Both the position numbers and the translations under genes were made by a program. The notes beneath the pieces are model-generated. The model ran no database searches, had not been told where the DNA came from, and saw nothing but the letters and a program-made list of their open reading frames with translations. This document shows, piece by piece, positions 4,626 to 52,960 of a DNA stretch of 64,000 nucleotides; the stretch's first letter is position 1; each line of letters opens with the position of its first letter. Origin of the DNA: Octopus vulgaris (Eukaryota); NCBI GenBank assembly GCA_951406725.2, contig OX597830.1:71052001-71116000 (forward strand), read 5' to 3'.

Positions 4626-5368
4626 AAGGCGGCGATCTGGCAGTATCGTTAGCACGCCGGGTGAAATGCCTAGCAGTATTTCGTCTGTCTTTATGTTCTG
4701 AGTTCAAATTCCGCCGAGGTAGGACTTTGCCTTTCATCCTTTCGGATTCGATTAAATATGTACCAGTTACGCACTGGGGTCGACTTAATCCGTTTGTCTG
4801 TCCTTGTTTGTTCCCTCTGTGTTTAGCCCCTTGTGGGTAGTAAAGAAATAGGTATTTCGTCTGTTCAAATTCCACCGAGGTCGACTTTGCCTTTCATCCT
4901 TTCGGGATCGATAAATTAAGTACCAGTTGCTTACTGGGGTCGATGTAATCGACTTAATCCGTTTATCTGTCCTTGTTTGTCCACTCTGTGTTTAGCCCCT
5001 TGTGGGTTGTAAAGAAATAGGTATTTCGTCTGTCTTTACGTTCAGAGTTCAAATTCCACCGAGGTCGACTTTGCCTTTCATCCTTTCGGGATCGATAAAT
5101 TAAGTACCAGTTGCTTACTGGGGTCGATGTAATCGACTTAATCCGTTTATCTGTCCTTGTTTGTCCACTCTGTGTTTAGCCCCTTGTGGGTAGTAAAGAA
5201 ATAGGTATTTCGTCTGCCGCTACGTTCTGAGTTCAAATTTCACCGAGGTCGACTTTACCTTTCATCCTTTCGGGGTCGATAAATTAAGTACCAGTTGCTT
5301 ACTGGGGTCGACTTAATCGACTGGCTCCCACCCCCACAAATGTTTGGCCTTGTGCCTAAATTAGAAAA
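4626..5368 (+). mobile_element. tRNA-derived SINE family B (Meta-domain-like centre), 4-unit multimer
   Basis: Head GGCGGCGATCTGGCAG, B-box GAGTTCAAATTCC, core GTCGACTTTGCCTTTCATCCTTTCGGGGTCGAT...AAGTACCAG; units restart at 4852, 5021, 5205; 16-bp TSD 4610-25/5369-84 (1 mismatch). Confidence 0.85.
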
Positions 5369-9311: not shown

Positions 9312-10111
9312 CTTGAGAAATTTGGCTTTTCAAATCCAAAATGGAGAAAGCTCACTCGAACTCTACAGATACAATTCATTACTGGAACTGTAAAAATCTG
9401 TAAAACTTTCCATAAGTTTATCATTCAAATATATATTAGCATGTCTACATATGCAACTATATGCATGAGAATACATACATAAAGCAAAATATATAAATCC
9501 GCACATATACATATATCCATCCATCCATCCATCCATCCATCCATCCATCCATCCATCCATCCATCCATCCATCCATACATACATACATACATACATACAT
9601 ACAAAAGTAACCTCTTGTTGATGTTGAAATTCTAATGAAGGAGACTTGAATCTTGGTTAGATACTGGATCTTTCTCTATTGGCAAGAAATCTTTATATAT
9701 AAAAGTGAGGTTGTGTGCTGTCTTTCTCCTACGATTTAGATTCCTAACTACTCCCACATTTTGCGGTGCAGTTTAACCAAAACCGGGTATCTTATAGTCG
9801 TGATTCATATCGAGCCCTTCTGGGTATTAGTGCGCGTCTACGATGAGTCTACGATTAAAAAAAAATTTCCCATCAATTTTTCCCATTTTTAATGCATTTT
9901 TGGCATATATAAGGGAAGTAACTCTCTAAAAAATTATTATTAATTCACAGAACGTAAAAAGCTACAGTAACACCCCCCCCCTTTGTGGTTAGCCATATTG
10001 AGATGGCTATTATACTTCACATCTCTATAAATGCTTATATAGTTATTTACCTTACAAACCCGAGCAACGCCGGGCGATACTGCGAGTCTTGAAATAAAAC
10101 TGAACAATGAC
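9312..10111 (+). mobile_element. Second RLE retrotransposon 3' fragment, interrupted by the Helitron
   Basis: [38 protein letters not shown] and the same 3' UTR. Confidence 0.7.
9690..10086 (+). mobile_element. Non-autonomous Helitron
   Basis: A|TC 5' end (TCTTTATATATAAAAG); 3' hairpin CCCGAGCAACGCCGGG 10059-74; ends CGAG|T; no TSD; splits host repeat ggcaagaaa|tcttgaaat exactly. Confidence 0.85.
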
Positions 10112-15091: not shown

Positions 15092-15330
15092 TTTAATATT
15101 TATCGCCACACTAACATGGCAGTCCAGGAAATAGGACGAATACTACCGTTGATTAGCTCCAAGAGGCCATACCCTCTAGCTAGGTATGTGACACACAAAC
15201 CTTTGTCCATTTCAACCTTCGAACATGGGAGCTCAGCAGCTCCCCTTGCTGGTTCAACATCCACAGACTAGTTTCGGCGTGATTGCCTCTTATCAATATG
15301 GAGTAGCCGAACCCAGCAGGTGTCGCTGCT
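15092..15330 (-). mobile_element. HHR-bearing short retroelement, family H2 (copy 1)
   Basis: Reverse complement aligns along its length with 30411-30620; carries an HHR motif at its 5' end. Confidence 0.65.
15251..15313 (-). ncRNA. Type I minimal hammerhead ribozyme, U3-A8 variant core
   Basis: Minus strand: GGTTCGGC-tac-TCCATA TTGATAA ga GGC-aatcac-GCC GAAA CTAG TC TGTGGA-t-GTTGAACC; 6+8 bp stem I, palindromic stem III ACTAGT, GUC site between 15266 and 15265. Confidence 0.7.
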
Positions 15331-15660
15331 GACTGTCTGTTCCGAGGTTTATTTCATATATTCAATGGAATACATCCACTGGTTTTCAAACATAGAAATA
15401 TTAATAATTCTAAATCTCCCTAAATATTTCTCTTTCTCCCTCTCAGACGTAAAGAATTGTAGAACAGCTCAACTAGTTTCACTTGATCATGATGAACTCT
15501 CCGTGGCTGTGTATTACATGTGTTGTAGAGAGAGAGTAGAATACAACCACTTTAGTCAAAATAATGAATAACAGGCTCTGCTTCTGGACATTTCCATTTT
15601 AAGATTTCCTTGTGGATGCGTATTAACATAAGTGTTGTAACACAATATCTTTACATCTTT

Positions 15661-24106: not shown

Positions 24107-24133
24107 TCTGAATTTACAAAATATACCCTATTG

Positions 24134-24382
24134 TTCTGTTGTGTCTGGGGAGAGTCATTTTCTTTTAGTGCCTTATAATGTAACACACTCACCGGTAAAA
24201 TTTCCACTTATTTCTTATTTTTAATAAAGATAAAAAAAAAGAAGAGAGAAGTGGAAATTTTACCGGCGAGTGTGTTACATTATAAGGCACAAAAAGAAAA
24301 TGACTCTCCCCAGACACAACAGAATATGCTTCAACACACGAACTCATATAAAGAATCTTGCAAACCAAATCCCAAAACGAAA
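24134..24382. mobile_element. Fold-back element (arms 24134-24209 / 24249-24324) with asymmetric tail; same family as 43011-43330
   Basis: Direct inverted-repeat pairing; arms and ~60-bp tail nearly identical to the 43 kb copy. Confidence 0.8.
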
Positions 24383-30410: not shown

Positions 30411-30620
30411 CAGCGATTAGCAGAGGCAAATACCCTGAAACTAGTCTAGGTGCCAGATGAGCAAGGGGAAGCGGCTGACCTCCACTGTTCGAAGGTTATA
30501 ATGGACACAGGTTCGTGTGTCACATAACTAGCTAGAGGCGATGGCCTCTTGGAGCTAATCAACGGCAGCATTCGTCCTATTTTTCTGGACTGCCATGTTA
30601 GCTTGGCGATAACTATTAAT
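30411..30620 (+). mobile_element. HHR-bearing short retroelement, family H2 (copy 2, core decayed)
   Basis: Homologous to 15092-15330 (minus); retains GAAACTAGTC at 30437-46 but lacks a recognisable CUGANGA box. Confidence 0.6.
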
Positions 30621-30959
30621 TTCTATCTCATAGAGGGCAAATCTAAATTAAATGAGAAATGCACACACACATATACATGCATATTTATACATGTAGTTTG
30701 GTTTCAAAATTTTGGCACGAGGCCAGCATGTTTGGGCCAAGAGGAATGTCGATTGCATCGACCACAATGCTCAACTGATACTCGTTTTATCGACCTTGAA
30801 AGGTAGAGTCGACTTCCTCGGAATCTGAACTCAGAACGTAAAAACACAAGAAATGCTCCAAAGAATTTTACCCCGACGCGCTAACGATTCTGCCAGCTCG
30901 CCACCCTAATATACGCATATATATATAAGAAATAAATGACTTTCATCCGGGTATAAATG

Positions 30960-34098: not shown

Positions 34099-34753
34099 TA
34101 TCCTTTTGGCAAATATTGTAGTTCTGTTTTTTTTTGTTGCTATCTTATTTTTTTAATCTATGTTATTCTTTGTATTCTCAAGCTCAGTGCATCGGATAAA
34201 ATGCCTTGCAGCATTCCTTCCGGCTCTTTACACTTTAAGTTCCATTCGTGCCGAAGACAAATTTGCTTTCATACTTCCAGGGTCAATAAAGTAAATGCTA
34301 CTCAGATACTGGGTCATTGGTATCAACTATTCCCCAACCTCTACAACTTGTAGCTTTGTATCAAAATTTGAAACAAGAAGCAGGGAGCAGACAGAATCAT
34401 TGGATTGTCTGAAAAGAATGCTTAGAGACATTTCTTCAAGCTCTATGCGTTCCATGTTCCAATGCCACCAAGTCGATTTTATCCTTTCGATGTTGATAAA
34501 ATAAGTACCAGTCAAATACTAGGACCGTTGTAATTGGCATTTCTTTTCCCTCAACAGTGATGGCCTTGTTCCAAAATTTGAGGTTGCGGCATTTCGTCCG
34601 TCTTTACGTTATGAGTTCAAATTCCGGCGAGGACGATTTTGCCTTTTATCCTTTCAGAGTCGATAAAATATGCACCAGTTACGCACTGAGGTCGATGTAA
34701 TCGATTAGCACGCCTCCCCTAAAATTTCAGGCCTTGAGTCTTTAGTAGATAGG

Positions 34754-34818
<65 letters not shown>

Positions 34819-34888: not shown

Positions 34889-35156
34889 TTCAACGAAAAC
34901 CGGTGATTGCCGTACGCTGATGACAGGTCAAAACCTAGAAACTGCAGTCCGTGCGTATCACTTAGGTTGACGAGGAAGGGTGACCTCCCTTTTGCAAATA
35001 CCATAAGGGCACAGAAAGTGTGCCTTAAGCCATCTGGAGACGATGTTCTCCTGGGGCTACAAGCTACAGTAACACCCACCCTTAGTGGTTAGCCATATTG
35101 TGATGGCAACCATATGTCACATTGTCGTGCAGTTACTGTTTATGCCTCGTTCAGAG

Positions 35157-35157
<1 letters not shown>
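34889..35157 (+). mobile_element. Short HHR-bearing non-autonomous retroelement (retrozyme / Penelope pLTR-like), family H1, between (ATT)n tracts
   Basis: ~270-bp unique block flanked on both sides by (ATT)n, with an HHR at the 5' end followed by a hairpin series colinear with the elements at 15.1-15.3 kb and 30.4-30.6 kb. Confidence 0.65.
34902..34962 (+). ncRNA. Type I minimal hammerhead ribozyme, canonical core
   Basis: Stem I CGTACG(34911-16)/CGTGCG(34950-55), extended by GGTGAT/ATCACT; CTGATGA 34917-23; stem II AGGT-caaa-ACCT with a C.A mismatch at its base; GAAA 34938-41; palindromic stem III ACTGCAGT; GUC triplet, predicted cut after 34949. Confidence 0.8.
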
Positions 35158-35228
<71 letters not shown>

Positions 35229-35239
35229 CATTATTATTA

Positions 35240-35303
<64 letters not shown>

Positions 35304-35332
35304 TTATTATTATCATCATCATTATTATTATT

Positions 35333-37703: not shown

Positions 37704-38282
37704 TGACGGCGAGCTGGAACAAATGTTAGCACGCCGTGCGAAATGCGTAGCGGTAATTCGTCTGTCTCTACGTTCTGAGTTCAAATTCAGCCGAGGTCGA
37801 CTTTGCCTTTCATACTTTCGGGGTCGATTAAATAAGTACCAGTTATGCACTGGGATCGATGTAATTGACTTAATCCGTTTGTCTGTCCTTGTTTGTCCTC
37901 TCTGTGTTTAGCCCCCTTGTGGATAGTAAAGAAATAGGTATTTCGTCTGTCTTTACGTTCTGAGTTCAAATTCTGCCGTGGTCGACTTTGCCTTTCATCC
38001 TTGCGGGGTCGATTAAATAAGTACCAGTTACGCACTGGGGTCGATATAATCGACTTAATCCGTTTGCCTGTCCTTGTTTGTCCTCTCTGTGTTAGCCCCT
38101 TGTGGGTAGTAAAGAAATAGGTATTTCATCTGTCTTTACGTTCTGAGTTCAAGTTCTGCTGAGGTCAACTTTGCTTTTCAACATTCCGGGGTCAATAAAT
38201 TAAGTAACAGTTGCGTAATGTGGTCGATCTAATCAACTGGTCCCCTCCCCCAAAAATTTGGGCCCTATGCCTAGAGAAGAAA
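37704..38282 (+). mobile_element. SINE family B, 3-unit multimer
   Basis: Units restart at 37938 and 38121; 17-bp TSD AGAGATAAGACGGCGTA 37687-703/38283-99. Confidence 0.9.
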
Positions 38283-43010: not shown

Positions 43011-43623
43011 TGTTGTGTCTGGGGAGAGTCATTTTCTTTTTGTGCCTTATAATGTAACACACTCACCGGTAAAATTTCCACTTCTTTCTTATTTTTATTT
43101 TCCTAAAATTTTCGTTGCGTTGAGAGTCAAGACTATTGAAAAGGTTGGAAGACGCAACGAAAATTTTAGGAAAATAAAAATAAGAAAAAAGTGGAAATTT
43201 TACCGGTGGGTGTGTTAAATTATAAGGCACAAAAAGAAAATGACTCTCCCCAGACACAACAGAATATGCTTCAACACACGAACTCACATAAAGAATCTTG
43301 CAAACCAAATCCCAAAACGAAACCAAATCTCCAAACTCGGAGTAACAATTTGCGATATTTCCCAGCTGAAATAGAATAGTGTATGTGTGTGTGGGGAGGT
43401 AGGCATGCAATATTTTGAAGAGAGAGAGAGGGAGGCTACGGCTGTGCTTCATAGAAATACTTAATAAGGTAAATAAGGTAAACATTTACCTTATTAAGTA
43501 TTTCTATGAAGCACAGCCGTAGCCCCACCTCTCTCTCTTCAAAATATTGCATGCCCCCCACCACCACACACATACACTATTCTATTTCAGCTGGGAAATA
43601 TCGCAAATTGTTACTCCGAGTTT
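43011..43623. mobile_element. Double fold-back element: palindrome 43011-43261 (HHR-like motif at centre) and palindrome 43333-43623
   Basis: Arms 43011-43120/43152-43261 and 43333-43474/43484-43623 pair almost fully. Confidence 0.8.
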
Positions 43624-51350: not shown

Positions 51351-51764
51351 GGCGGCGAGCTGGCAGAAACGTTAGCACGCCGGGCGAAATGCGTAGCCGT
51401 ATTTCGTCTGCCGTTACGTTCCGAGTTCAAACTCCGCCGAGGTCGACTTTGCCTTTCATCCTTTCGGGGTCGATGAATTAAGTACCAGTTACGCACTGGG
51501 GTCGATGTAATCGACTTAATCCGTTTGCCTGTCCTTGTTTGTCCCTTCTGTGTTTAGCCCCTTGTGGGTAGTAGAGAGATAGGTATTTCGTCTGCCGTTA
51601 CGTTCTAAGTTCAAATTCCGCCGAGGTCGACTTTGCCTTTTATCCTTTCGGGGGCGATAAATTAAGTACCAGTTACGCATTGGAGTCAATGTAATCGACT
51701 TAACCCCTTTGTCTGTCCTTGTTTGTCCCCTCTATGTTTAGCCCCTTATGGGCAGTAAAGAAAT
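51351..51764 (+). mobile_element. SINE family B, 2-unit multimer
   Basis: Unit restarts at 51583; 17-bp TSD AAGAATGGGATGACTGA 51334-50/51765-81. Confidence 0.9.
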
Positions 51765-52960
51765 AAGAATGGGATGACTGACACATACAGAGGTAGACTT
51801 AGGGTCACGTATGCTGTTTCTAACCCTCTTGACTGGGTAACTGTTAGGTGATTTCTTGCTATATCACTGACTATATCTAGCATCAGTTGTGAAGACTCTC
51901 ATATTATAATACCTCCGAATGGCCTGTTCTTCAAATTCCGCTTGCAACTTATCCTAAAGCACATGTAGAGTGTTAAACAGATTTTGTCTACTGCGTCAGT
52001 TCATTTGGTTAAGTTTGGAATTTCATATGAATTACCGCTGACCATGGAACTTGTCTGTTGTCTGTTACAAGTTTTAATTATATTATTGTGTGACTATATG
52101 TTGCAGAGGGATTGAAATTGCCAGTGAAGAGTGTTTTACTATTTAATGTTGTATTTAGAGTAAAATAAATCTGCACTGATTTGGGCGAAGGTAACGAGTC
52201 GTTAGACAGTTGACTAGAATGTCTCACGGCATTTGTCCCGAATCTATACATTCTGAATTCAAATCTCGACAAAGTTAAGTTTACCATTAATCATTTAGGG
52301 ATCCTTAAAAAAAACAAGATATCAATGGGGAACGGTGGATTGGCGGAACGGTTTGAGGGTTGGGCGAGATGTTTATAGCATGTGTTCCCAGCTCTTTGTT
52401 TTCTGACAACAGCCTTTGATATATTTAATGCCATGTTCTATCGGTCCATGTCGGCAGATTTTTTTCCTTTCGGTAAATATCGGTAGCGTAAAGAGGAGAG
52501 ACATTCATGCACGGGTTCCAGTCTTTCTCAAAAATTCTTGCTATGGCCCTATACAAACACGTGTAGATAGATGACCAACTTTGACTTACGGAAAACCTAA
52601 AGTTTTTCCGTAAACCTTTAGGTCTTTTATATGGACGTCTCATTTATATGACCAATTTATATTTGTTAAATCCTTTTGCTTGTTCATTAAGATGTGTTAA
52701 GTAAAGTAAAGTGCTGGATATTTGATGTTCTATATATGTTTCAGTGAGGGCGCATAGCTCACTGGTTAGAGCGTCTCACTAACAATCATGTTTTAGTGAA
52801 TTCGATTCCCAGACCTAGCTGTGTATTGTGTTCATCAGTTTCATACATGCTTACATACATACATACTCCTATGACGGGGCTTTGTATCTTTGTTAGAAAC
52901 CATATTCTTGTTCAGAAGAAGAATTTAAATGATTAAAAATAGAAGAGAAACATACATATA

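Follow-up and report, generated by a model that had tools for sequence, protein, structure and literature searches.

A short non-coding block inside an (ATT)n array of the octopus genome is likely a shortened copy of a retrozyme, a tandem-repeat element without an open reading frame (ORF), which is moved by the protein of a Penelope-like element (PLE). It belongs to at least five related families, here called A, A2, B, C and C2. The comparisons below show that these are homologous, and that compensatory change has preserved in all five both the canonical type I hammerhead and a single predicted circular fold. Five is a lower bound: the covariance model was run on fetched loci, and more families are possible genome-wide.

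The first-pass annotation had proposed a non-coding, retrozyme-like family of retro-RNA, predicted to be self-cleaving and mobilised in trans. That proposal gains support from thousands of candidates in the genome, and from units arranged head to tail. It is further backed by the lack of a linked ORF, by covariation in further families and by a PLE-type insertion anatomy. Its novelty stands in part. The common scaffold was not found in the literature searched, but the kind of element has already been published as non-LTR retrozymes, including mussel ones with repeats of 350-390 bp (PMC7229834).

The copies in the window

The window, meaning the whole 64-kb stretch of DNA that was analysed, holds four related pieces, two of family A and two of family B. 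Their features are as follows.

34889..35166 (+): family A copy, a 5'-truncated monomer that ends at the distal internal 3' end; ~95% to the family majority
34902..34962 (+): whole canonical type I hammerhead (sequence, A versus B covariation, five-family helix table)
34902-07/34957-62 (+): hammerhead outer stem I
34911-16/34950-55 (+): hammerhead inner stem I
34917-34923 (+): hammerhead core CTGATGA (sequence)
34925-28/34933-36 (+): hammerhead stem II
34938-34941 (+): hammerhead GAAA (sequence)
up to 34949 (+): palindromic stem III ACTGCAGT, then GUC, of which 34949 is the last base
after 34949 (+): predicted ribozyme cut
34963..35001 (+): 3' strand of the long rod, which has the hammerhead at its tip
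35007..35025 (+): hairpin 2, GGGCACA/TGTGCCT, core pairing GGCACA 35008-13 with TGTGCC 35019-24
35028..35058 (+): hairpin 3, two helices with compensatory changes
35066..35139 (+): multibranch domain, with an 8-bp closing helix (35066-73/35132-39), two inner hairpins and an unpaired segment
35092-35107 (+): inner hairpin GCCA-N8-TGGC, inside the multibranch domain; GTCA/TGAC in family C
~35122 (+): proximal internal 3' end, in the unpaired segment of the multibranch domain
35123..35166 (+): PLE-type tail, bounded by the proximal (~35122) and the distal (~35166) 3' end (3'-end data; PMC11167929)
34755..34888 (no strand): (ATT)n target array, left part
35159..35332 (no strand): (ATT)n target array, right part
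15093..15424 (-): almost a full unit of family B, with its 3' end at the proximal site
15296-15290 (-): UUGAUAA (U3-A8) core of that B copy, with a predicted cut after 15266
30422..30623 (+): family B copy, missing its core through truncation within the hammerhead, with its 3' end at the proximal site
9959..10022 (+): short piece of family A, with its 3' end at the proximal site

The motifs first noticed in the A copy are all present in the sequence: the canonical type I elements (CTGATGA, GAAA, palindromic stem III and GUC), the hairpins GGCACA/TGTGCC, GGAGA/TCTCC and GCCA-N8-TGGC, and the flanking (ATT)n. Other parts of the initial description had to be revised. The block had been taken for a whole element, but it spans only unit positions ~87-364 of a circularly permuted 355-bp family A unit. 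Through this truncation the 5' partner of the rod is mostly missing. The segment TGACCTCC, described as a shared motif of its own, is the 3' strand of the rod. The GCCA/TGGC hairpin had looked terminal because both B copies in the window stop at the proximal internal end; it lies inside the multibranch domain instead, and a tail of ~45 nt follows. The description of B as headed by a ribozyme fits 15093-15424(-), which keeps its head (UUGAUAA), but not 30422-30623, where 5' truncation has removed the CUGANGA core.

In the other four families hairpin 2 reads GGACACA/TGTGTC. The predicted folding of the A copy is better than that of 199 of 200 shuffles (z -2.8). Having one hammerhead and a truncated rod, this copy is in all likelihood spent, at most able to cut a passing transcript.

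Families and units

First-look candidates in the genome number 2,790 for A, 2,375 for B, 2,915 for C, 2,205 for A2 and 2,079 for C2; these are not copy numbers, and the best 40 were scored per family. The best 40 of the 2,790 A candidates have 91-100% identity. Family A2 is very young, its best 40 matches being 99-100% identical. Loci retrieved for unrelated purposes, 0.49 Mb in sum, contained three insertions; together with the four window pieces this suggests, as a rough estimate, ~10^4 pieces in total.

Upstream of the A copies in 30 fetched loci, the sequence goes on with the end of the unit itself, which makes this a circularly permuted unit of 355 bp. B loci behave alike, with a unit of 361 bp. 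Over the five families the unit measures 352-368 bp and its GC content is 0.43-0.46. A search for tandem copies had been proposed, and it found head-to-tail units in all five families: dimers in A, B, C and C2, and arms of up to 4.8 units in A2. One A2 insertion, flanked by (TA)n, is a 7.6-unit array in which one arm has 4.8 units and the inverted arm 2.8. Its units differ by no more than one mismatch each, plus a single short gap.

The majority lines of the five families are 51-76% identical in pairs. The homology of the block to the divergent B family, as originally claimed, holds: the A and B majority lines agree at 70% over 92 nt (E 1.4e-7). Plain blastn with the window copies as input gave no A-B link. 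A covariance model, R1, was built from 7 A and 7 B copies, and with these two families only it found family C in an unrelated locus fetched for another purpose (E 3.5e-7). A2 and C2 were revealed by BLAST of locus flanks. R1 had no match in any of 31 loci from a pattern scan of metagenome (7) and viral (24) contigs.

The suggested linked PLE ORF did not turn up. No ORF collinear with the unit runs into it in the fetched loci of the five families; unit joins unit. An ORF next to an A copy at locus L022 was rejected as linked: it belongs to an older PLE family with an unrelated terminal repeat, and the A copy is inserted with a target duplication.

Rfam had no hammerhead or other relevant match on the family A block, where it gave 3 chance matches (E 0.8-4.6), and nothing at gathering level on 4 unit-bearing loci. 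A genome search with Rfam Hammerhead_1 brought up other hammerhead families; none of its 30 fetched matches held an A or B hammerhead.

The hammerhead

The hammerhead in the units is a canonical type I one, with a 6-bp stem I and a further outer helix, a 4-bp stem II and a short palindromic stem III. This also applies to the window copy. The minimal hammerhead of PLEs is defined by a 7-8-bp helix II and a 4-5-bp helix I (PMC4209133), and the unit hammerheads fall outside this definition.

By pattern, the core is intact in 42 of 51 distinct copies of A, 14 of 14 of A2, 18 of 26 of B, 31 of 34 of C and 14 of 14 of C2, where the pattern allows CCGA and U3-A8 variants and the A2 set includes some A copies. 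In family A, variation in the hammerhead is concentrated at the free N7 position. Family B has U3-A8 in place of C3-G8, a variant known from PLE hammerheads (PMC4209133).

Stem III is palindromic yet different in each of the five families (ACTGCAGT, ACTCGAGT, ACTAGT, ACATGCATGT and ACACGTGT), and two further single copies have different palindromes again. A palindrome that is retained while its sequence differs points to cleavage as a dimer, as was proposed in PMC4209133. A C-A mismatch at the base of stem II in A and C, and the CCGA core in C2, may count against activity. Judging from the conservation of the hammerhead, the unit RNAs likely cut themselves by means of it.

Other hammerhead repeats were met in the fetched loci. 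Further B-type subfamilies, 80-87% to B and with other palindromic stems III, are at L163:2069-2326, L122:990-1178 and L265:5-290. A type I hammerhead repeat family with stem II extended by ~65 nt occurs in L122, L123, L126, L135 and L141, with no ORF seen nearby, and is related to a family with a shorter stem (L127-L149). A lone strong Rfam Hammerhead_1 match (45.5 bits, L121:1501-1547) is unrelated to the families studied here.

The shared fold

An alignment of the five majority lines, made without regard to structure, leads to one predicted circular fold. It consists of a small hairpin, a rod of ~50 bp with the hammerhead at its tip, two hairpins and the multibranch domain with its 8-bp closing helix. 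B, C and C2 have an additional hairpin, of which A and A2 show only a weak form. For the bases around TGACC, a GNRA hairpin was considered and dropped, as the long rod is preferred.

The compensatory changes between A and B that had first been noticed are real, and they extend to C, C2 and A2. Between A and B, 10 of 19 pairs in the hammerhead region and 7 of 26 in the body are doubly changed, against 0-2 in slid controls. A and B are two lineages, so these cell counts overstate the evidence. In the consensus fold of all five, both sides have changed in 48 of 98 pairs, and pairing is kept in 416 of 479 cells, for a structure that was fitted to the same five rows. Six of the 8 pairs in the closing helix of the multibranch domain are doubly changed across the families.

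When the families are folded independently, 56-75% of pairs are common, versus 1-11% (at most 47%) after equal random substitution in 40 trials each. As a held-out comparison, pairs derived from A and B were followed into the other families. Among those that had changed, 21 of 33 still pair in C (16 of them by double change), 24 of 34 in C2 and 11 of 17 in A2, versus 41-44% for random pairs. This gives moderate support for covariation; five lineages are few.

Folded as circles, natural units reach MFE z-scores of -3.2 to -11.7 with 60-68% of bases paired (40 shuffles each). The reverse strand also folds, with a consensus energy of -70 versus -86 kcal/mol.

A YY1-like reading of GCCATNTT at the DNA level was rejected, as family C has GTCA/TGAC there; the swap from GCCA/TGGC argues against a DNA-protein motif at that hairpin.

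Insertion anatomy

Copies come as truncated monomers, as head-to-tail runs or as inverted two-arm insertions, and their targets are AT-rich. An inverted arm is found in 17 of 30 A loci and 13 of 30 B loci, and head-to-tail pieces in 14 and 5 of these respectively. Non-simple target duplications of 8-14 bp occur in 13 of the 30 A loci, where 500 shuffled pairings gave a mean of 0.8 and a maximum of 5.

The 3' ends of the copies pile up at two fixed internal sites, 43-56 nt apart. In unit positions these are ~320 and ~365 for A, ~309-311 and ~352-354 for A2, ~289 and ~345 for B, and ~314 and ~369 for C2. The distal and proximal bins hold 48 and 25 of 89 ends in A, 18 and 17 of 43 in B, and 5 and 11 of 17 in A2. 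Family C ends are mostly distal (29 of 44, with 3 proximal) because of how the C loci were chosen. In all five families the two sites fall at homologous places of the predicted fold. The proximal one is the unpaired segment inside the multibranch domain, and the distal one lies 43-56 nt beyond it.

In PLEs, the tail is the stretch between two internal start sites of reverse transcription (PMC11167929). We infer that the ends at ~35122 and ~35166, which bound the tail of the window copy, are two such start sites. In an A sample anchored on the 3' end, 18 of 20 distal-ended loci with an inverted partner, a count that includes duplicated loci, have an inverted arm that starts at unit position 319-322, the proximal site. 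The PLE protein studied in PMC11167929 makes its nicks at ATT, and both strands are extended by it.

Pieces within a single insertion have 27-57% of their variants in common, versus 7-16% between insertions, as is expected from one template. The 5' ends are not enriched at the predicted ribozyme cut (1 of 30), and forward arms cross it in 14 of 30. A cut linear monomer would therefore not be the template, which leaves a circle or an uncut multimer. These two explain the insertion data equally well.

Some loci have identical insertion junctions at nearby positions (L092, L093 and L099; L102/L103; L179/L180). These are local segmental duplications with retrozyme copies in them.

Local Penelope-like elements

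Three PLE families of this genome were examined: an older one, one with a 717-aa protein and one with a 781-aa protein. The 717-aa PLE (loci L241-L246 and L216-L240, for example G000:C17:48.476-48.479 Mb) has an intact ORF with a CxCX5C linker and, at its C-terminus, a GIY-YIG domain, and sits in (TA)n targets. It is currently expanding: 141 of 150 scored matches are identical over 177 aa, and first-look candidates number 20,093. It has two 3' ends (23 and 22 copies), a tail of ~65 nt and a hammerhead with a CCGAAGA core. The 781-aa PLE (L277-L282) likewise has an intact ORF and (TA)n targets. Its hammerhead is a minimal one with U3-A8, its long 3' UTR is made up of short tandem repeats, and an ORF-like region lies upstream. 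By the motifs given in PMC8557442, the 717-aa PLE resembles the Hydra clade and the 781-aa PLE the Neptune clade.

Identity to the terminal repeat of an annotated PLE would have taken away the novelty of the block, and none was seen in the three families compared. Their terminal repeats have minimal hammerheads and are unrelated to the units, and no homology to body or tail of the units was found among them. R1 had no match in 25 loci of the 717-aa family (best E 0.21), none in 8 full-length PLE loci and none in 30 GIY-YIG loci except for one inserted B-type copy. Ten out of ten local alignments of tails to PLEs were not significant (p 0.12-0.90), and a likeness between the two in a CTC-GAG hairpin was rejected on this ground.

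We infer that the helper of the units is a PLE protein, and none of the three families examined matches body or tail. Two active PLE families with intact ORFs coexist in this genome with the very young A2.

Some copies lie close to these PLEs. At L022:871-2016 an A copy has inserted into an older PLE, at its 3' end, and is accompanied by a target duplication. A family C copy lies beside the same older family at L066/L151, and at L191 an A2 copy and the 717-aa family are in a common (TA)n.

Comparison with known systems

The metazoan non-LTR retrozymes of PMC7229834 (Cervera and de la Pena 2020) also have a canonical type I hammerhead per unit, short tandem units and no ORF. They share GC below 50%, target duplications above 4 bp, a highly paired predicted circle and coexisting PLEs. 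At the sequence level, all features of a retrozyme are found in the octopus: canonical hammerhead, tandem units within ~170-400 nt, no ORF, GC, duplications and paired circle. The units are additional members of the known non-LTR retrozymes. In the literature searched, neither their common scaffold nor their tail signature turned up.

There are differences as well. As described in PMC7229834, retrozyme sequences are specific to species (similar among stony corals), whereas here five families have a common scaffold. PLEs are only a candidate helper there; a PLE tail and inverted arms are seen here. The octopus elements are mostly dispersed copies of 1-2 units.

A 2026 preprint (bioRxiv 10.64898/2026.07.22.740005) also has PLEs as helper, and monomers, dimers and multimers. 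It covers 31 vertebrates, 3 insects and one coral, and is based on co-occurrence and homology to PLE pseudo-LTRs (pLTRs). For the octopus families the link to the helper is the insertion anatomy, with no homology to the three local PLE terminal repeats.

PLEs themselves (Poseidon of Anolis, PMC11167929; Hydra and Neptune clades, PMC8557442; pLTR hammerheads, PMC4209133) resemble the units in several ways. They too form partial tandems with an inverted 5' arm, bear a tail on one of their ends, have two internal start sites of reverse transcription and AT-rich or (TA)n targets, and carry a type I hammerhead, including U3-A8. The units differ in having no reverse transcriptase (RT)/GIY-YIG ORF, a canonical instead of a minimal hammerhead and a tail of 43-56 nt versus 30-40 in PLEs.

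An octopus repeat annotation (PMC13282606) lists 30 recently active Penelope families, and the word 'ribozyme' is absent from its main text. The five families may already be catalogued as unclassified repeats. In the literature searched, where subscription papers are thinly covered, nothing was found on cephalopod retrozymes, a covarying retrozyme body or PLE tails in retrozymes.

Mechanism and alternatives

The proposed course of events is as follows. Read-through or multimeric transcripts would be cut once per unit, probably by two hammerheads paired through the palindromic stem III. Ligation would then turn the monomers into circles, which is what measurements on retrozymes of coral, mussel and axolotl have shown. 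A PLE RT/GIY-YIG protein would then bind the structured body and nick both strands of AT-rich DNA. cDNA would begin at two internal sites, one per strand, yielding an arm with a tail and an inverted arm without one. Copies longer than one unit would arise when the RT, working on a circle or an uncut multimer, continues past the ribozyme site.

It is possible, though on balance unlikely, that these same elements, with the same PLE helper, use an uncut multimer as template, with circles rare or irrelevant and the hammerhead only trimming or freeing transcripts. The lack of 5' ends at the cut, and arms that read across it, would suit this. For the sole PLE reconstituted in vitro, ribozyme cleavage was dispensable and insertion worked from unprocessed RNA, although cleavage there needed the protein (PMC11167929). 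Most frog retrozyme dimers tested (8 of 9) showed no cleavage in vitro (bioRxiv 10.64898/2026.07.22.740005). However, five families maintain the hammerhead core and the palindromic stem III by compensatory change, the predicted fold closes over the whole unit, and related animal retrozymes accumulate as circles (PMC7229834). The arrays of identical units in single insertions suit a circle without requiring one. Considerably less probable is that the units are solo pLTRs of autonomous PLE families that were not sampled. PLEs do share the insertion anatomy, only three of this genome's PLE families were examined, and in Xenopus 24 of 57 retrozyme families matched annotated transposable elements, 21 of these 22 elements being PLEs (bioRxiv 10.64898/2026.07.22.740005). 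Yet in 150 loci (1.5-kb flanks, some duplicates) the upstream sequence is unit, inverted arm or unique flank. PLE-type ORFs do lie at L022, L151 and L191, and a short RT-like motif at L116, but the unit is not their 3' UTR. The terminal repeats of the three PLE families are unrelated, with minimal hammerheads and no R1 match, and the unit hammerhead is canonical, not the PLE minimal kind (PMC4209133). Least credible of all is that the units are a SINE mobilised by a LINE, or a satellite that DNA recombination has spread, and that their hairpins arose by chance. 5' truncation, target duplication and microsatellite flanks are also known with LINE-driven elements, but two fixed internal 3' ends, inverted arms with one fixed start, a circularly permuted unit, the conservation of the ribozyme core and the strong covariation all speak against it.

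Returning to the PLE-moved retrozyme, the role of its body invites a tentative proposal. The multibranch body might be an RNA docking platform for the telomerase-related PLE RT, which would place the two template starts as telomerase RNA does, and it would not be derived from any local pLTR. Instead of RT docking, the conserved body could also serve to stabilise the circle, to signal transcription or to fold the cDNA strand, a reading that is itself doubtful. As a rule, retrozyme RNAs show a high degree of self-pairing (PMC7229834), the reverse strand folds too, and the body has no similarity to the local PLE repeats, which the same RT must recognise. Against this, both 3' ends are at homologous fold positions in five families, individual helices and some sequence motifs are conserved beyond overall pairing, and the GCCA/TGGC hairpin has changed in a way that does not suit a DNA-protein motif.

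Animal retrozymes raise the question of which RT moves them and what it recognises. The 2020 description proposed PLEs as candidate helper (PMC7229834), and the 2026 preprint added co-occurrence and pLTR homology in frogs (bioRxiv 10.64898/2026.07.22.740005). Here a PLE-specific tail and two-arm signature are carried by an element without an ORF. Five diverged versions of one fold can pin down which helices matter, and A2, at 99-100% identity, is young enough to be active beside intact PLE ORFs. This makes the identity of the helper, templating by circles and the role of the ribozyme directly testable. If the body does act in docking, these elements would be an independent lineage of circular RNA parasites whose structure evolved to hijack PLE proteins. 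A2 and the two active PLE families would then be a ready in vitro pair for rolling-circle twin priming.

Other repeats in the window

An abundant SINE-like repeat, presumably of MetaSINE type, is present at 34560-34755, 4695-5322, 37752-38238 and 51399-51765, and some of it forms tandem units of 184 bp. The window A copy has the (ATT)n tail of this repeat as its target. Among the 150 of 341 Rfam matches listed for the whole window, microsatellite-driven miRNA matches dominate. Long inverted-repeat (MITE-like) elements with a common terminal sequence are found at 24133-24325 and 43060-43212; the Rfam miRNA matches at these two places score below the gathering level.
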